From Elusimicrobiota bacterium (lineage in GTDB: Bacteria; Elusimicrobiota; Elusimicrobia; UBA1565; UBA9628), in the NCBI GenBank assembly GCA_016207605.1, contig JACQPJ010000041.1, positions 4,264 through 68,263 of the forward strand: a DNA stretch of 64,000 nt, written 5' to 3'. The notes beneath the pieces are model-generated. The model did not search any database. It saw only the letters and a program-made list of their open reading frames with translations, and was not told the origin of the DNA. Below, in pieces: positions 33,356-53,003 of this stretch (its first letter is position 1; each line of letters opens with the position of its first letter). The translations under genes and the position numbers were made by a program.

Positions 33356-34378
33356 TTAAGCCGCGCACAATTCCACGACCAGTCGCTCAAGCTCCAGCTT
33401 GGGATCGAGCCACGACTTCGATTTAAGGTCCGCCTCGACCTCCAGGCAGCGGCGCAGGTCCCGGCGCAGGCGCTCCTCGCCGACGCGCTCGGCGCGGGCG
33501 AAGAACCCCCGGTCGTAGAAGATGCGCAGGCGCGTCTCGATCTCGCGGGGAGCGGCGCCGGCCCTCAGCAGGCGCTTGGCCTTGAGCTGCTTCAAGCAGG
33601 CGCCGCGAATCTGGGCCAGGGCGCGAAAGACCGCGTCCTCGGGCTTGCCGTCGGCGAAGAGCGCGGCGAGCTGGTCCAGGCAGGCCTTGAGATCGCGCTC
33701 CTGGACGAGCCGCTCCAGGGCCCAAGGATCGGCCGACTTCCGGTAGCCGAGGCACTGGAGCGCGTCCTCCACGCCGATTCCCGGGGCGTTCCCGACGAAG
33801 AGAGCGGCTTTTTCCAGCTCGCCGGCGAGCACGCCCCAGTCCGTTCCCGCCTCGGCGACCAGCGCCTCCGCGGCCCGGGGGGCCAGGGTCTTGCCCAGCT
33901 CCCGCGCCCGCGCGATCAGGCGCTCGGCCGCCGTCCCCTCGTCCAGCGGCGCGAAGACGCAGACCGCGCCCGCGCGGGCCGCGGCCGCCGCGAGAGGGTC
34001 CCGGCGGTCCGGGCGGCGGTCGTCGCAGAGCAGGACCAGCGTCGTGGTCGCGCAGGGCGACTCCAGGTAGGCGGCGAAGGCCGCGCGCGCCTCGGCGGGC
34101 AGCCGGGGGCCGCGCACGATCACGAGCCGCCGCTCGGCCAGGACGGGCAGGGTCAGGGCCTCGGCGATCGCGGCCTGCGCGCCGGCCTGCGCGTCCAGCT
34201 CCCGGCGGTTGAAGTCGTCGGCGCCGAAGAGTTTTTTGAGCTCGAGAAGAGCCTGGGCCTTGGCCGCGGACTCCTCGCCGAGCAGGTAGTAGACGGGCCG
34301 GAAGCGCCCGGCCTTCCATTCCCCGAGGAGCGCCTCGGCGGACAGTTCCACTAGGCCGCGATCCTTCGGACGCGGCAC
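33356..34378 (-). CDS. holA: DNA polymerase III subunit delta
   Basis: 340 aa in the track, with FRPVYYLLGEE and the conserved position after leuS-lptE. The GTG start at 34378 lies inside a CTAG-bounded repeat. An alternative GTG at 34348 (VELSAEALL...) is equally plausible. Confidence 0.75.
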   Translation of the reverse strand: MPRPKDRGLVELSAEALLGEWKAGRFRPVYYLLGEESAAKAQALLELKKLFGADDFNRRELDAQAGAQAAIAEALTLPVLAERRLVIVRGPRLPAEARAAFAAYLESPCATTTLVLLCDDRRPDRRDPLAAAAARAGAVCVFAPLDEGTAAERLIARARELGKTLAPRAAEALVAEAGTDWGVLAGELEKAALFVGNAPGIGVEDALQCLGYRKSADPWALERLVQERDLKACLDQLAALFADGKPEDAVFRALAQIRGACLKQLKAKRLLRAGAAPREIETRLRIFYDRGFFARAERVGEERLRRDLRRCLEVEADLKSKSWLDPKLELERLVVELCAA

Positions 34379-34410
34379 AGATGCGCTGAGGAGAGGCTCA
34401 TAGCATCTAG
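34351..34410 (-). repeat. CTAG-bounded double-hairpin repeat unit (single copy, inverted relative to the 49.4 kb copies)
   Basis: The reverse complement reads CTAGATGCTATGAGCCTCTCCTCAGCGCATCTGTGCCGCGTCCGAAGGATCGCGGCCTAG, near-identical to the units at 49387 and 50202. Confidence 0.85.
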
Positions 34411-37588: not shown

Positions 37589-39013
37589 CTATTTCGCGGC
37601 GCTGGAGACGACGACCTCGGCGGGGGGCGCGGCCAGGCGGCCGCGCCAGACGCCGGCGCGCACGGTCGAGGTGGAGTACAGGAAGTCGGTCGCGTATTGG
37701 AGCGCGTAGCTCGTCGTTGCGGCGGCCAGCAGCGGGCCGGCCGCGTCGCGGTCCTGCTCGAAGCACAGCGTCTTGTTCGGGGGGATCTTCACCTGCTCCG
37801 TGACCAGTCGTGCGGTCGCGCTGGAGGCGAGTTGGGAGAACGGCTCGGGGGCGCGGTTGAAGCCCAGGACCGCGCCGCGCGCGCCGGGATCGCGCACGAA
37901 GTCCAGGAAGGCGCTGCGCCCGCCGGCGTTCTGGATCTCGACGAGCAAGGTCACCGTCTCCCCAGGCGCGTAGGCGGGCTTGAGGGGGCGCACGCGCGCG
38001 CGCAGGCCGCCGGCGGCGCGTCCCCAGGGGGGCGCGGGGGGGAGATCGGCCCGCGCGCAGGCCGGCGAGCGGGCGAGGGGGTCCTCGGGGCGGGGCTTGA
38101 GCCTGGCGTCGAGGTCGAGCGCGAGGAGGGAGTACGGGTCGACGCGCGCCTCGCCGAGCTTGAGCGCCCAGTGGAGGTGCGGTCCGGTGACGCGGCCCGT
38201 CGCGCCGACCCGGCCGATGAGCTGGCCCTTGCGGATCGGATCGCCGGGCTGGACCAGGATGCGCGAGAGGTGCGCGTAGAGCGTGGTCAGGCCCAGGCCG
38301 TGGTCGAGCACCACGGTCTTGCCCGAGAAGAACAGGGTTCCCGCCAGGGCCGCCCGTCCCGCCGCCGGCGCGCGCACGGGCGCGCCCGTCTTGGCGCGCA
38401 GGTCCGCGCCCGAGTGGGGCGCGCGCGGCTGGCCGTTGAAGACGCGCCGCCGGCCGAAGCCGGAGGCCGCGGCGGCTCCGGGGATGGGCGGCGCGAAGGC
38501 GCCCTCGAAGAGGCGCGGGGCCTGCGGCCGCGCGAACAGGCGGTGCAGGGCGGCCGCCTCGCTCTCGGCGCGCTCCAGGTCGGATTTCGGCAGCGTGACG
38601 TAGCCCTCGGGGACGCTGAGCGCCTCGATGGGGAAGCGCGCCGCGCGCACGAAGAGGGTCTTTTGCGTCCGCGCCGCGCGTCCGGCGGGGTCGCGCAGGA
38701 CCGCCTCCAGCCGCGCGGGGCCCGTCGAGGCGTCGAGATCGAGGGCCGCGAGGGCCAGCCAGGTGCCCGTCGAGGCGCCGGGAAAGAAGCTCAGGTCCTT
38801 GCCGCGCAGGGAGGCCGAGGGCGGCGCGACGGGGTCGGCGCCCTCGACGACGACGAGCAGGACTTCTCCGGGCCTGACCGCGCGCGACTCGACCGACAGG
38901 CGGGGTCCCGCCGCCGCGGGAGCCGGGCCTCGACCCTTCGGGCTCGGCACGGGCGCCGCGGAGGAAAGCCTTGTAGCGCCTAGGGCCGCGGCCAGCAGCA
39001 GGGCCGCGGTCAC
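37589..39013 (-). CDS. Secreted M23 family metallopeptidase with additional N- and C-terminal domains
   Basis: 474 aa. Signal [14 protein letters not shown]23 motifs HSGADL and [13 protein letters not shown]. Confidence 0.8.
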
Positions 39014-48449: not shown

Positions 48450-49363
48450 GCGTCAAGATCTACCGCAGCGTCCACGAGCTCAAGGGTTTCTCGCTCAAGA
48501 GCTGTCCGGCCATGGACCAGCCCTCGGGCGTGCTGATGTGCCCGCCGGACCACTACCAAGTGCTCGCGGTCAAGAATCCCTACATGGCGGGCCAGGTCGG
48601 AGCCGTGGATCGCGAGAGAGCCCGCGCCCAGTGGAACCACCTCAAGGAGGCCTTCGACGCGGCCGGCTGCCCGGTCTCCCTCATCGACCCGGCGCCGGGC
48701 CTCGAGGACATGGTCTTCTGCGCCAACCAGTCCCTGGCCGGCACGCGTCCCGACGGCCAAAAGGTCGCCCTGCTGTCGGCGATGCGGCACTCCTCGCGCC
48801 GCCGCGAGGTCGAGTCCTTCGAGGCCTGGTACGCGGCCCGCGGCTACCGCGTGATGCGGTTCAAGGCGGGCGGGCACGAGACCTTCGAGGGCTCGGGCGA
48901 CGCGGTCTGGCACCCCGGGCGGCGCCTGCTCTGGGGCGGCCACGGCTTCCGCAGCGACCCGGAGGTGTTCGAGCGGGTCGCCGACGCGTTCCAGACGCCC
49001 GTCGTCCTTCTCAAGCTGGTCAACGAGCGCTTCTATCACCTCGACACCTGCTTCTGCCCGCTCACGCCCGAGGCGGTGCTCATCTATCCGTCGGCCTTCG
49101 ACGCGGCCAGCCTGGAGCTCATCCTCAAGATCGTCCCCATCGTCGTCACCGTCGGCGAGGCCGACGCGGGCGCGCGCATGGCCTGCAACGCCGCGGTCGT
49201 ACGCTCCAAGACCGCGATCCTGCAGAAAGGCGCGACCTCCGTCGCCAACCACATGCTCGCCCTGGGCCTGGGCGTCTGCGAGGTGGACACCTCGGAATTC
49301 ATCAAGTCCGGCGGCAGCGTCTACTGCCTCAAGCAGTTTCTCTTCGACGGGCCCGCCGGTTGA
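48446..49363 (+). CDS. Amidinotransferase/DDAH/arginine-deiminase superfamily (guanidino-group-modifying enzyme) protein
   Basis: GTG at 48446 overlaps the upstream stop; an alternative ATG lies at 48512 (MDQPSGVLMCPPDHY). Contains FYHLDTCF and the C-terminal catalytic-type motif GGSVYC. Confidence 0.65.
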   Translation: MSVKIYRSVHELKGFSLKSCPAMDQPSGVLMCPPDHYQVLAVKNPYMAGQVGAVDRERARAQWNHLKEAFDAAGCPVSLIDPAPGLEDMVFCANQSLAGTRPDGQKVALLSAMRHSSRRREVESFEAWYAARGYRVMRFKAGGHETFEGSGDAVWHPGRRLLWGGHGFRSDPEVFERVADAFQTPVVLLKLVNERFYHLDTCFCPLTPEAVLIYPSAFDAASLELILKIVPIVVTVGEADAGARMACNAAVVRSKTAILQKGATSVANHMLALGLGVCEVDTSEFIKSGGSVYCLKQFLFDGPAG

Positions 49364-49386
49364 AAGAACGGCGCTGGAGGGCTATA

Positions 49387-49503
49387 CTAGATGCTATGAG
49401 CCTTTCCTCAGCGCATCTGTGCCGAGCCCGAAGGGTCGAGGCCTAGATGCTAGTAGGCTTTCAGCCGCCGCATCTGTGCCGAGCCCGAAGGGTCGAGGCC
49501 TAG
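49387..49503 (+). repeat. Tandem dimer of CTAG-bounded double-hairpin repeat units (type 1 + type 2)
   Basis: Unit 49387-49446: CTAGATGCTATGAGCCTTTCCTCAGCGCATCTGTGCCGAGCCCGAAGGGTCGAGGCCTAG. Unit 49443-49503: CTAGATGCTAGTAGGCTTTCAGCCGCCGCATCTGTGCCGAGCCCGAAGGGTCGAGGCCTAG. The two share the middle CTAG. Confidence 0.9.
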
Positions 49504-49507
49504 ACGC

Positions 49508-50026
49508 ATGATGAGATTCCCGCGTCTGGCACTGGCCTTCGCTCTTCTGGCGTCGACGACGCTTCCTCTCCACGCGCAGGAAGAAGGCGAGGCCGCCGAC
49601 GCCGTGCCCGCCTCCGACGCGCCGGCCCCGCCGGCGGAGGACGCGGCTGCCGACGAGACCGCTCCGCCGGCCGCGCCGGCCCCCGCCTCGCCCGCGCCGC
49701 CCGCTCCCGCGGCGCGCCCCGCGCCGCCCGCCGTCAAGGCCGCGGCCAAGGTCCCGCGCAAGGCGCGCCGGCGTCCCGCGGCCAAGAGAGCGCGCGCGAA
49801 GGCCCGGGTCCGCGAGTCCCGCTACAAGTCCCGCGTGCTCAGCGAGGGCGCGGAACATCACTACCGCTTCGACGCCCGCGGCAATCCCCTGAGACGCTCC
49901 AAGCCGGGCGCCAAGCCCCGGAAGGGCGGGGCCCCCGTCGCGCCGGCTCCGGACTCCCGCGCCTGCGCCGCCGACGGCTCTTGCCCCGACGGAGCCGCCA
50001 AGTCCTCGGACGCCGACGCTTTGTAG
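49508..50026 (+). CDS. Secreted low-complexity Pro/Ala-rich and Lys/Arg-rich protein
   Basis: ORF track, 172 aa. Signal MMRFPRLALAFALLASTTLPLHA, then a PAPPA-rich tract and a basic KARRRPAAKRARAKAR segment. Confidence 0.45.
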   Translation: MMRFPRLALAFALLASTTLPLHAQEEGEAADAVPASDAPAPPAEDAAADETAPPAAPAPASPAPPAPAARPAPPAVKAAAKVPRKARRRPAAKRARAKARVRESRYKSRVLSEGAEHHYRFDARGNPLRRSKPGAKPRKGGAPVAPAPDSRACAADGSCPDGAAKSSDADAL

Positions 50027-50034
50027 GCGATTCG

Positions 50035-50205
50035 ATGCGCCTGGAGCGCCTGCGCTGGCCTCTTCTCCTGGTCTCCCTGATCGCGTTGGGCCTGTGCCTG
50101 TGCCGGGGAGCGACGCCCACCCGCCTGGCGGCCGCCGCGGTCGGCGCCGCGGGCTGGTGGCTCCTCTGCCGCCGCAAGGCCCGCTCCCTCGACGGCGACT
50201 GCTAG
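50035..50205 (+). CDS. Small membrane protein (56 aa)
   Basis: Internal ATG at 50035 (MRLERLRWPLLLVSLIALGLCLC...AAGWWLLCRRKA, two hydrophobic segments). Its TAG stop is the first CTAG of the next repeat dimer. Confidence 0.35.
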   Translation: MRLERLRWPLLLVSLIALGLCLCRGATPTRLAAAAVGAAGWWLLCRRKARSLDGDC

Positions 50206-50318
50206 ATGCTATGAGCCTTTCCTCAGCGCATCTGTGCCGAGCCCGAAGGGTCGAGGCCTAGATGCTAGTAGGCGTTCAGCCGCCGCATCTGTGCCGAGCC
50301 CGAAGGATCGCGGCCTAG
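50202..50318 (+). repeat. Second tandem dimer of CTAG-bounded repeat units
   Basis: Unit 50202-50261 is identical to 49387-49446. Unit 50258-50318 is type 2 with a hybrid right arm (GCCGAGCCCGAAGGATCGCGGC). Confidence 0.9.
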
Positions 50319-51028
50319 CTGCCGACGGCGATCCAGCCGGCCGAGCCCATGGAGGACCAGCCGTTCCAGGCGCCGCAGCTCCCGGCGTCGGGCGAGCCCC
50401 CGACGTACAAGCGGAAGCCCGTTCTGGTCATGTTGGCGGGATAGGCCACAACCTTGTCGGTGGCGCCGCCGACGCACCCGCCTTGATTGGAGATATTTTC
50501 CGGCGTCACCAGGACATGGGGCGTTGACGTGAAGGGTTGAGAGAAAACGATGTCTTGGAACCAAAGCCCGCTGCACAGCCCCCCTTGGAAGGTGCCGCTG
50601 CAATTGGCGGGCGCGCCGGGGCTCACCCCGTGGCCCGAAAGGACTCGGACCGGGCTGGGCATCGCGGAGAGGCATTTGCCCCCGCTCGCGTCCGTGCAGA
50701 CGTCGGTCGCGGCGTGGATTTTTCCGTTGACGTCCAACGCGTATCCCGCGGCCGGGGCGGAGGTTTTGATCCCGACCGCGCCGCCGTCGCGCGCCAGGTA
50801 GGTGTCGCCGGTCGTGATCATCCGCGTGTAGATTCCCGATGGGGCGGGATAATAGGTGGTGAGGGTGATGTTCTCGGAGCCGAGCTCGGCGCCCGCCGCC
50901 AGGAGCATGGCCGTGACCGCGCCGGCGCGCAGAAGCCGCGGGCGGACGCGAATCTTACGGCGGAGGGTCCCTATGGCCACAAGAAGCTGTGAGGCCCAGA
51001 GTATAGGGGGCATTCCAGACAAATTCAA
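50315..51028 (-). CDS. Membrane-anchored or secreted protein with a tail-fibre-like stalk motif and a C-terminal H-type-lectin-like domain
   Basis: ORF track, 237 aa; the start could be 51013. TM/signal AGAVTAMLLAAGA, then ITLTTYYPAPSGIYTRM...GAVGIKTSAPAAGYALDVNGKI, then FSQPFTSTPHVLVTPENI...NMTRTGFRLYV. The stop lies in the repeat's terminal CTAG. Confidence 0.5.
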   Translation of the reverse strand: MNLSGMPPILWASQLLVAIGTLRRKIRVRPRLLRAGAVTAMLLAAGAELGSENITLTTYYPAPSGIYTRMITTGDTYLARDGGAVGIKTSAPAAGYALDVNGKIHAATDVCTDASGGKCLSAMPSPVRVLSGHGVSPGAPANCSGTFQGGLCSGLWFQDIVFSQPFTSTPHVLVTPENISNQGGCVGGATDKVVAYPANMTRTGFRLYVGGSPDAGSCGAWNGWSSMGSAGWIAVGS

Positions 51029-51043
51029 GGGGGGCCGAACTGG

Positions 51044-51628
51044 GTGTCAGGCGAAGGCGAACTGCTCCTGGGCAATGACTCCGCGACCGCCTATAAAGAA
51101 AAAACAGTAGAGGACGAGAAGGGCAATACCAAGGTCGTCAAGCAATTGATCAATCCTTGGAAGTTCAGCGCCGACAAGGGCCGGGCCGAGGAGATCCAGG
51201 CTTTGGCCGGGCAGTACGTGTTCATCCGATACCGGCAGCACAACCTGAAAAATCCTCTCGCGGCCGACACCGATTATGAATTCCAGGAGATCAGCCCGGT
51301 CAACCCGGAGTTCGCTCCCAAGGAGGCCTGTCAAATCGACATGAAGGGCGGCAATTCCAAGGGGTTTCGCATGGCGCGCATCGTGAAAGCCAGCCGCAAG
51401 GGGGTGGCGGTCAAGTCCTTCGAGCTCATGCTGCAGGTCGGCGGCGCGGGGAATCAGTTCGAGGAGATGTCGGTTTCCGATGAGGGGATTTACAAGTGCG
51501 CGCAGGATTGGCTTGCCTCCGGCAAAGCCGTCAATGTCTGGTACGCGCAGAGCTACATCTACAACCCGATCACCCAAGGCACCGGCTACAGCGTCTGGAA
51601 ACTGGAGCCCCTGGCCTCCTTGAATTAG
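51044..51628 (+). CDS. Hypothetical protein (194 aa), AT-richer
   Basis: ORF track with a GTG start only 15 nt from the divergent gene, so the start is uncertain. No signal peptide and no motif I recognise. Its TAG stop lies in the TTAG end of the next repeat. Confidence 0.4.
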   Translation: MSGEGELLLGNDSATAYKEKTVEDEKGNTKVVKQLINPWKFSADKGRAEEIQALAGQYVFIRYRQHNLKNPLAADTDYEFQEISPVNPEFAPKEACQIDMKGGNSKGFRMARIVKASRKGVAVKSFELMLQVGGAGNQFEEMSVSDEGIYKCAQDWLASGKAVNVWYAQSYIYNPITQGTGYSVWKLEPLASLN

Positions 51629-51700
51629 GCCGCGATCCTGCGGACGCGGCACAGGTGTGCTGAGGAATGGTTCATAACACCTAGGCCGCGATCCTTCGGG
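51625..51700 (-). repeat. Divergent CTAG/TTAG-bounded repeat unit plus an adjacent half unit
   Basis: The reverse complement of 51625-51684 reads CTAGGTGTTATGAACCATTCCTCAGCACACCTGTGCCGCGTCCGCAGGATCGCGGCCTAA. The half unit CTAGGCCGCGATCCTTCGG follows from 51681 and encodes the hpnE C-terminus. Confidence 0.8.
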
Positions 51701-53003
51701 CGGCGGCGAAGCCCGAGACGCAGGCGCTCTCGATGGTCGCGGGCAGGCCGGTGCGGGTCCAGTCGCCGGCGAAGAGGAAGCCGGGCATGCCGGAGCCGGG
51801 TTCCGGGCGCTTGGCCTCGGCGCCGGGGGCGGGGGAAATGGTGGCGAAGGGCTCCTTGATCACTTTCCAGGCCGTCACGTTGGCCTTCGCGAAGTCCGGC
51901 AGACAGGCCGAGAGGTCGCGAAGCATGGCGTCGAGAATCGCGCGGGGGGAATAGGCGATCTGGTCGTGGGCGCCGGAGATCACGACCGATAGAATTTGAC
52001 CGTCGCCGCTCAAGCCGTGGATCCGGGATTTGTTGAACACCCAATGGGTCTCGGCGCCGAGCAGGCCGATGAAGCGCTCGCGCATCACGGGGCGGTCGAG
52101 GCGCAGCGTCGCGCCGACGATGGGCGCGGGGGCCAGCGTCTCCCAGGGGCCGCGCAGGGCGGCGGGCAATTCCAGCCGGCTTAAATCCCAGGGGGGCAAA
52201 GTCGAGACGACGGTTTGCGCCGGGAAGCGTTCGCCGCGATCGCTGACCGCGCCGCGCACGCATTGACCATCCTCGATCAAGGCCGCCGCTTTGGCCGACG
52301 GGATGATGCGGCCGCCGCGTTTTTCGATGGAGTTTTTCGCGGCATCGACATAAAGCTCGGATAGGCCGACGCGCGACAGGCCGAAGCGCGAGGCCTCGCG
52401 GCTGGAGAAAATCGCGCGCAGGACCTGGACCAAGCCCGCGGCCGAGGCGATCTCGGGCCGCTCGTTGAGCGCGCCGATGACGAGGGGATCGAAGAAGCGC
52501 GCCTGGAAATTGCTGGAGAGGCCCAAGGACGTCAGCCACCGGCGCGCGGTCATCGCCTCGACCGCGTCGGGGACGGCGCCGGTCTTGAGAGCCCTGAGCG
52601 CTTGATCGAAGGCAAGGAGCGCCGCCTTGTCGCGCCAGCAGACGCCCTTCAGACCGAGAAGTCCCGCGGCGAGATGGAGCGGTGCCGGCAGCCAGGCGGG
52701 ACAGGCCAGGCGGTCGCGCCGGCCGCCGGGCTCGGCGTAGTCCACGGCGATTTCCTCAGACACGTCCAGGTTTTCCTCGGCGCCGATCAGGCGCAGGAAG
52801 CGGCGCGTGGCGGCGTAGCAGCCCATGAAGAGGTGCTGGCCGTTGTCCACGGCGCCGAGCTCCTGGTCCGGGAAGGAGAAGGCGCGCCCGCCGAGATGCG
52901 GCTTCTTGTCGAGGAGAAGGACTTTGGCGCCCTTGTCGGCGAGGGCCGCCGCGCAGGAAAGCCCCGCGAACCCCCCGCCCAGGACCAGGACGTCAGAGGC
53001 CAT
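51681..53003 (-). CDS. hpnE: Hydroxysqualene dehydroxylase HpnE (FAD-dependent amine-oxidase/phytoene-desaturase fold)
   Basis: Internal ATG at 53003 (MASDVLVLGGGFAGLSCAAAL; dinucleotide-binding motif) chosen; 440 aa. Follows hpnC-hpnD. Confidence 0.75.
   Translation of the reverse strand: MASDVLVLGGGFAGLSCAAALADKGAKVLLLDKKPHLGGRAFSFPDQELGAVDNGQHLFMGCYAATRRFLRLIGAEENLDVSEEIAVDYAEPGGRRDRLACPAWLPAPLHLAAGLLGLKGVCWRDKAALLAFDQALRALKTGAVPDAVEAMTARRWLTSLGLSSNFQARFFDPLVIGALNERPEIASAAGLVQVLRAIFSSREASRFGLSRVGLSELYVDAAKNSIEKRGGRIIPSAKAAALIEDGQCVRGAVSDRGERFPAQTVVSTLPPWDLSRLELPAALRGPWETLAPAPIVGATLRLDRPVMRERFIGLLGAETHWVFNKSRIHGLSGDGQILSVVISGAHDQIAYSPRAILDAMLRDLSACLPDFAKANVTAWKVIKEPFATISPAPGAEAKRPEPGSGMPGFLFAGDWTRTGLPATIESACVSGFAAARRIAA

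Follow-up and report, generated by a model that had tools for sequence, protein, structure and literature searches.

A small mobile double-hairpin repeat at gene ends in a clade of Elusimicrobiota

The stretch of DNA analysed here, which we refer to as the window, spans 64 kb (positions 4264-68263 of contig C25) of an Elusimicrobiota metagenome-assembled genome (MAG), G000, whose assembly comprises 1.44 Mb in 60 contigs at 68.6% G+C and is estimated to be 75% complete. It raises the question of what the roughly 60-nt, CTAG-bounded double-hairpin repeats are whose ends coincide with the stop codons of neighbouring genes, and how such sequences come to lie there. A first-pass annotation had reported these units and likened them to repetitive extragenic palindromic (REP) sequences and bacterial interspersed mosaic elements (BIMEs), or to a terminator or insulator RNA; we confirm the observation itself and find its extent to be larger than first described. 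We interpret the units as a small non-autonomous mobile element that is restricted to one clade, has been amplified in G000, and inserts before stop codons, bringing its own stop codon, start codon and short open reading frame (mini-ORF), a reading to which we assign a probability of about 0.7. As it lands before stops with a stop, a start and a short frame of its own, most of its surviving copies would leave the neighbouring genes working.

The unit, its copies and its fold

Seven full units and a half unit lie in the window:

34351-34410, minus strand: full unit of 60 nt (C25:38614-38673) that fills the lptE-holA junction; its first CTAG is the lptE stop (34407-34409), the G of its last CTAG opens the GTG start of holA, and its chain from stop through mini-ORF to stop is complete
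38923-38983, minus strand: diverged unit of 61 nt (C25:43186-43246, 53 bits), recovered by a repeat scan and nhmmer, in frame inside an M23 peptidase gene (Pfam Peptidase_M23)
49387-49446, plus strand: first unit of dimer 1, 60 nt, 72 bits, with a left hairpin of the ATGC type and a GAG/GAG right hairpin with tandem G.A
49443-49503, plus strand: second unit of dimer 1, 61 nt, of 'type 2', having a CTAG in common with the first; an 18-codon mini-ORF, from ATG to TAG, stops 4 nt short of the start codon at 49508
50202-50261, plus strand: first unit of dimer 2, whose first CTAG is the stop (50203-50205) of a small membrane-protein gene
50258-50318, plus strand: dimer 2, second unit; its right hairpin is a hybrid that pairs a GAG arm with a GCG arm, and the convergent gene 50315-51028 on the minus strand takes its stop (50315-50317) from the last CTAG
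51625-51684, minus strand: full unit with a left hairpin of the GTGT type between convergent genes, its ends being the stops of gene 51044-51628 (plus strand, where the end reads TTAG) and of the hpnE-like gene (51681-51683)
51681-51701, minus strand: 5'-truncated half unit, the 3' arm of a right hairpin (model positions 40-60, E 0.022)

Every unit named by the first-pass annotation, the half unit included, is present, but its tally of 6.5 copies was incomplete, as the diverged copy at 38923-38983 had been overlooked. Its five coincidences of unit ends with stop codons are all correct, and Pfam matches mark the flanking genes as real (LptE; DNA_pol3_delta, the DNA polymerase III delta subunit; and an HpnE-like amine oxidase). 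The same can be said of the two hairpins per unit, the exchange of GATGC/GCATC for GGTGT/ACACC, the two right-arm types of which one carries a tandem G.A/A.G, and the hybrid unit. The statement that type 1 and type 2 units always occur together as dimers describes the two window dimers, which are 97% identical duplicates, but fails genome-wide, where type1+type1 and GTGT+GTGT dimers also occur.

A profile built from the window units and run with nhmmer (cut-off E<1e-6) recovered 101 copies in the assembly, so the family is not confined to the 17-kb stretch where it was first noticed. Nearly all are distinct in sequence (94 of 99 full copies), and they form 80 arrays, namely 63 singles, 14 dimers, 2 trimers and 1 tetramer; the 17 multi-unit arrays all run head-to-tail, with no case of mixed orientation. 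Many copies lie at contig ends, suggesting that the units fragment the assembly. Internally deleted units that keep both ends follow full units at C25:68620-68682, C40:10040-10102 and C20:94013-94030 (examples being ATGCCATGA-AGGTCGAGGCCTAG and ATGCTATGAGC-CTAG), and short left-end stubs (ATGCTATGAG..) follow several arrays.

The unit, of 56 nt in G000 and 57 nt in most relatives, runs from its own CTAG through a left hairpin, a CTGTG linker and a GC-rich right hairpin to a terminal ..GGC. Across the 94 distinct G000 copies the two-hairpin model is 89% paired, 8 pairs have changed on both sides, and none of 500 shuffles matches the observed score; shifting the partner columns by 1 to 3 lowers pairing to 31-43%. 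A second set of 52 distinct copies from other genomes, aligned by fitting to the model and thus leaning towards the proposed structure, has 11 pairs changed on both sides, with 98% pairing in the left outer stem, 94% in the right hairpin and 65% in the inner left hairpin. The covariation proposed from the window thus holds in the larger alignments. The outer stem of the left hairpin is kept through compensatory changes and its interior is variable. In the right hairpin the central pair is C-G, G-C or A-U, and about half of the G000 copies carry the tandem G.A/A.G; conservation extends to a bulged T in this hairpin, to its loop (GAA or GCA) and to the CTGTG linker, and over about 100 copies the right hairpin and linker are far less variable than the inner left hairpin. 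The fold is asymmetric between strands, the tandem G.A and U.G pairs being stable on the CTAGATGC.. strand and not on its complement; antisense copies showed no significant preference for the perfectly paired right-hairpin type (6:2 vs 18:19). ATGC left hairpins occur with GAG or GCG right hairpins at 35:18 and GTGT left hairpins at 9:6, and a few units have hybrid right hairpins, a reassortment which implies that copies recombine with or convert one another.

A covariance model run on 61 genomes from 18 genera of the same taxonomic family detected the element in 28 genomes and 10 genera. Copy number ranges from 0 to 37 in the relatives, with none in 33 of the 61 genomes, and reaches about 100 in G000; the distribution is uneven across the family and includes a single strong expansion specific to one lineage. 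Exact core patterns scanned against 185,579 species genomes occurred in Elusimicrobiota MAGs only, and there was no match in plasmid collections, phage collections or Rfam, where the sole hit was a chance-level one to mir-138 (E 7.5). Judging from these genome sequences, the element appears restricted to one family-level clade of Elusimicrobiota. Our literature searches found no paper on such repeats in Elusimicrobia, and as far as they show this is the first structured repeat family described from this uncultured phylum.

Mobility, boundaries and landing sites

Comparison of filled and empty sites establishes that the element is mobile. The lptE-holA junction holds a unit in G000 only; all 29 of the other species in the genus lack one there, and in these tac-TGA/TAG/TAA is followed after 0-12 nt by ATG or GTG GAG CTG; the hpnE 3' end is likewise empty in 28 other species. 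In the reverse mapping, at least 6 of 10 sites filled in relatives are plainly empty in G000 and 1 resembles a decayed in-frame remnant. The exact boundaries can be read from the relative G005, which has two copies of an IS91/ISCR-family (insertion sequence common region) transposase gene that are 99.7% identical, with one mismatch over about 270 flanking nt, and differ by an exact 57-nt insertion, CTAGACGC...CCCGGC, at GAAGA^CGCAGG. This insertion has no target duplication (one C is ambiguous, hence at most 1 nt) and its target lacks CTAG, from which it follows that the element owns its 5' CTAG and that the bases past ..GGC are target.

The ends of the G000 copies can be viewed in the same light. 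Of 99 copies, 93 have CTAG at the 5' end, whereas the 3' end reads CTAG in only 69, CTAA in 5 and CTGA in 2. The last of these is two changes away from CTAG, yet it recurs in about 6 of 45 copies from relatives, and in filled/empty cross-species pairs the type of the 3' stop (TAA or TGA) is that found in the empty genome. The 3' CTAG, CTAA or CTGA therefore appears to be the resident stop of the gene landed on. Two copies end in CTAC (on C20 and C30), and both run on into the first bases of an IS630-family element, the whole insertion being read on C20.

The junction between the KH-protein gene and trmD, a conserved GAC-TAG with a start codon 0-6 nt on, offers a view of recurrence at one site. 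It is filled in 3 of 31 genomes (G000 with three units, G007 and G072), always in sense orientation, and empty in 28, including 7 sister species of the G000 genus and 2 of the G072 genus. The three copies are probably better explained by repeated hits on one target than by one old insertion. We had considered that shared sites might be old orthologous copies held by in-place selection and dropped this idea, as trmD displays scattered, probably independent hits on a conserved CTAG.

The element inserts without target duplication, usually immediately 5' of C-TAG and less often of C-TAA or C-TGA. In effect it lands just ahead of a stop, such that its own TAG comes to terminate the upstream gene, and the resident stop, together with any adjoining start codon, stays at its 3' edge. 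This accounts for CTAG on both sides of a unit and for head-to-tail arrays with a common CTAG. Of the 80 arrays, about 38 have as their first CTAG the stop of an upstream gene in the same orientation, as against about 9 in which the last CTAG is the stop of an oppositely reading gene (p 2e-5), and many copies sit inside operons, flush with the next start codon. Elements contain 43 of the 108 C-TAG stops in G000 (about 40%) and a quarter of all its CTAGs (147 of 595), in a genome where the tetranucleotide is about three-fold under-represented (595 observed vs about 1720 expected from trinucleotides). GC skew in the fragmented G000 assembly tracks the coding strand and gave no replication signal.

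Two intragenic copies were verified to lie in frame, one in the M23 peptidase gene of the window and the other in the G005 transposase tail. The former contributes about 19 extra residues directly past the signal peptide, a segment missing from the N-termini of 8 relatives. The half unit at 51681-51701 encodes the final residues of the HpnE-like protein (..RRIAA*), which ends otherwise in relatives (e.g. ..AAEKILRG*). Given that about 40% of C-TAG stops fall within elements, gene callers will set some starts and C-termini wrongly, examples in the window being the start of holA, the tail of HpnE and the M23 peptidase.

The two window dimers (49387-50318) form direct repeats of 117 nt with 97% identity that lie 815 nt apart and bracket two small genes, for a Pro/Ala-rich secreted protein (49508-50026) and a small membrane protein (50036-50205); such a layout could favour loss or duplication of the bracketed genes. 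A promoter-like site at 49360-49388 (TTGAAA, 17 nt, TATACT; 10/12 matches) ends on the first CTAG of dimer 1, which may thus lie within the 5' leader of the gene starting at 49508. Synteny around the DDAH-like gene (48512-49360) is not conserved among related Elusimicrobia, and for this reason the dimers have no empty sites with which to be compared.

A frame from stop to start

The 57-nt unit amounts to 19 codons, a TAG, an ATG and 17 sense codons, with the frame closing at the resident stop. In the 56-nt form the sequence TAG-ATG-CTA-TGA overlaps a second ATG, from which a frame likewise runs to the terminal stop. A ribosome terminating at the element's TAG might therefore restart at its ATG, read through both hairpins and stop beside the downstream start codon. 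In a post hoc comparison, the chain is complete in 12 of 14 operon-junction copies in G000 against 22 of 64 copies elsewhere (Fisher p 0.0007), in 14 of 20 against 6 of 29 in the relatives (p 0.001), and in 26 of 34 against 28 of 93 when the two are combined (p 4e-6); of the arrays that directly adjoin the next start codon, 9 of 9 carry the whole chain. There was no sign of the GAG arm serving as a Shine-Dalgarno site at junctions (about 9:5, not significant). The intact chains at operon junctions suggest that translational coupling is preserved there, and the pattern points to either selection for a translational relay or the purging of copies that break coupling. We infer that the mini-ORF is translated and that coupling is preserved by it.

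The mover, rival readings and known systems

Several observations weigh against the reading of the units as a mobile element carrying its own stop, start and frame. No mobilising enzyme was found, genes of the Y1/RAYT (REP-associated tyrosine transposase), IS91 and IS630 types being unassociated with the element. There is no PF01797 (Y1) match in the 75%-complete G000 MAG, in which the first-pass annotation had proposed to look for a RAYT gene, and none of 32 Y1 genes in relatives has an element within 1.5 kb. Y2 genes of the IS91 type are absent from G000 and occur in 26 of the 61 relatives without association with copy number, and 12 full-length Y2 loci have no element. Between co-directional genes 32 arrays are sense and 10 antisense (p 0.0009), a bias for which this reading does not account. 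About 40% of copies lack a complete chain, and the chain classes are in part sublineages (ATG-start vs ACG-start). The enrichment at junctions may merely mean that junction copies are younger; these are slightly closer to the consensus, at a level that is not significant (p 0.11). Finally, the mini-ORF test was defined after the data had been inspected, and the duplication-free insertion with an element-owned 5' CTAG is drawn from one clean pair and four cross-species comparisons.

The copies that follow a Y2 gene fragment in several genomes had led us to consider that the element is the end of an IS91/ISCR transposon. This was rejected in light of the 12 element-free full-length loci and of the finding that the copy at such a fragment is a simple insertion into the transposase's tail. 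On contig C122 of G080 (L093/L158), C-terminal fragments of the IS91/ISCR family flank two Fic-domain genes, and the tail of one fragment carries the element. In addition, another repeat family occurs in G000, in at least 8 copies that frequently lie at the ends of contigs (C8:36086, C22:53878, C37:4553, C46:1977, C50:34, C54:15972, C55:72 and C60:41411); on C37 an inverted copy of its start motif (AGGGGTTGCAATCAAATAATATGACC) appears some 200 nt further downstream, and the family therefore looks like a miniature inverted-repeat transposable element (MITE) of about 240 bp.

That the unit itself is a MITE of a CTAG-targeting DDE transposon of the IS630 or IS5 type, with CTAG or TA as target duplication, would accord with a habit of IS630-type elements, which favour CTAG and duplicate its central TA. 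Indeed, an IS630-family insertion sequence (IS) at C20:86353-87421, which encodes a DDE_3 domain in a transposase split into two frames and has 23-bp inverted repeats CTGATATACGYATAAGTAATAGG as well as a TA duplication, lies exactly in the 3' CTAG of copy C20:87422-87481. Its ends (CTGATATACG..) are, however, unrelated to the unit, and as it has itself inserted into the element's CTAG we rejected its transposase as the mover. Copy C30:3-62, ending in CTAC+TG at a contig edge, has probably been hit by another insertion of this kind. Neither unit end, CTAGATGC.. or ..GGTCGAGGC, is an inverted copy of the other, in agreement with the earlier report of neither terminal inverted repeats nor a linked transposase; this, together with the lack of duplication, excludes DDE-type transposition. 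DDE_3 is present in just 16 of the 61 genomes and does not track the element, and the clean G005 pair, with no duplication and a non-CTAG target, also lends no support to the suggestion that the YTAR-like ends mark IS5-type target sites. The MITE reading is thus largely refuted, and we regard it as very improbable. A classical family of REPs or their inverted doublets (REPINs), moved by a RAYT, a Y1 transposase with the histidine-hydrophobic-histidine (HUH) motif, that is missing from the incomplete MAG, has more to commend it and yet seems improbable to us. The right hairpin with its ..GGCCTAG resembles a tagged REP on the opposite strand, the lack of duplication fits an HUH enzyme, Y1_Tnp genes are common (47 of the 61 family genomes), and the termini of GTAG REPs are known to donate TAG stops and occasionally to occur in frame inside genes (PMC3733652). 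Nevertheless, the presence of Y1 genes is unrelated to element copy number: G049 (98% complete, 10 copies) and G051 (37 copies) have the element and no Y1 gene, and many genomes without a copy hold several. The tag is CTAG rather than GTAG or CGTC, and the units never form inverted doublets. At L130 and L134 (in G079 and G062, of another genus) several copies of another palindrome, AAAAAGGGGACWGTCCCCTTTTT, border the RAYT-like Y1_Tnp genes; this is presumably the REP family that belongs to these genes. Hence, of the original REP/BIME assignment, the part that stands is that of small structured repeats spread genome-wide, and the defining tag, RAYT and inverted doublets of REPs do not apply.

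Alternatively, the double hairpin could be a host RNA element that stabilises the upstream mRNA, ends transcription or insulates genes. The sense bias noted above (32 of 42 co-directional pairs), the non-Watson-Crick pairs that are stable on the sense strand only, and the low variability of the right hairpin and linker could all be understood in these terms. On the other hand, no T-run follows the hairpins, units end in GGCCTAG, no terminator-like call fell on the units in 49200-51900, and many copies lie within operons flush with the next start, which together leave the terminator or insulator role first proposed unsupported. Moreover, a host function accords poorly with the total absence of copies from more than half of the family genomes, with window sites that are empty in 28-29 sister species, with copies read in frame as protein, and with sites common to several genomes that resemble repeated hits on one CTAG rather than conserved orthologues. 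We therefore consider it unlikely, if slightly less so than the RAYT-driven family, and favour the non-autonomous mobile element.

The footprint of the element looks most like that of HUH single-strand elements by analogy: both hairpins are subterminal, one end abuts a target tetranucleotide that has a similar counterpart at the opposite end, and the strands are asymmetric. We infer that its mover is a single-strand, HUH-type or otherwise duplication-free enzyme. As no Y1, Y2 or DDE enzyme tracks the element, it is possibly served by a new duplication-free and strand-specific system that recognises the bulged-T hairpin. More tentatively, and with considerably less confidence than in the mobile element as such, we raise the possibility that the unit is adapted as a 'harmless insertion' cassette, which replaces a stop, keeps the stop-start junction, relays ribosomes and is moved by undescribed machinery. 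The family offers a natural example of selfish DNA living inside tightly packed operons, in which two separately described ideas, TAG-donating REP termini and coupling ORFs in the style of mycobacterial interspersed repetitive units (MIRUs), are combined. Its missing transposase is also a lead for research on HUH and other single-strand DNA enzymes.

Among known systems, HUH elements of the IS200/IS605 and IS91 types and palindrome-associated transposable elements (PATEs) have subterminal hairpins, no terminal inverted repeats and no target duplication. HUH elements insert next to a specific tetranucleotide and have a similar one at their own opposite end, and an extrahelical hairpin base is conserved in them, all of which applies to the present element as well. 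It resembles those of the IS200/IS605 and IS91 types in its two covarying hairpins, lack of duplication and strong C-TAG preference, and differs in that G000 has no Y1 or Y2 gene, relatives show no association with one, and no full-length parent element was found. Further, its best-folding strand (that with the tandem G.A) has the target on the 3' side, an arrangement opposite to that of IS608. With the Rickettsia palindromic elements (RPEs) it has in common being a small palindromic repeat tolerated in frame, as in the M23 peptidase and the transposase tail; in contrast to these, most of its copies are at stops or intergenic, and the 56-nt form that dominates in G000 does not permit in-frame read-through.

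The likeness to REPs and BIMEs extends to short, GC-rich imperfect palindromes in high copy, mostly at gene ends or intergenic, whose structure is kept by compensatory change and which occur in clusters and tandem reiteration. With GTAG REPs in particular the element shares a tetranucleotide ending in TAG beside a hairpin, termini that donate TAG and in-frame intragenic copies. Unlike the REP/REPIN-RAYT systems, it has a palindromic CTAG tag, two unrelated hairpins per unit, strictly head-to-tail arrays with a 56/57-nt period and no inverted doublets, no linked or correlated RAYT, and a stop-start mini-ORF within the unit. MIRUs, compared here by description, are likewise tandem intercistronic units of about 50-100 bp with an internal ORF meeting the flanking stop and start codons. 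They belong to another phylum, and the insertion site described for them is the start codon, with -4 spacing, whereas the present element is found before stops with its own TAG and is dominated by two conserved hairpins. By this comparison, its closest known counterparts are the GTAG-tagged REPs and the MIRUs, and it can be seen as working like a blend of both.

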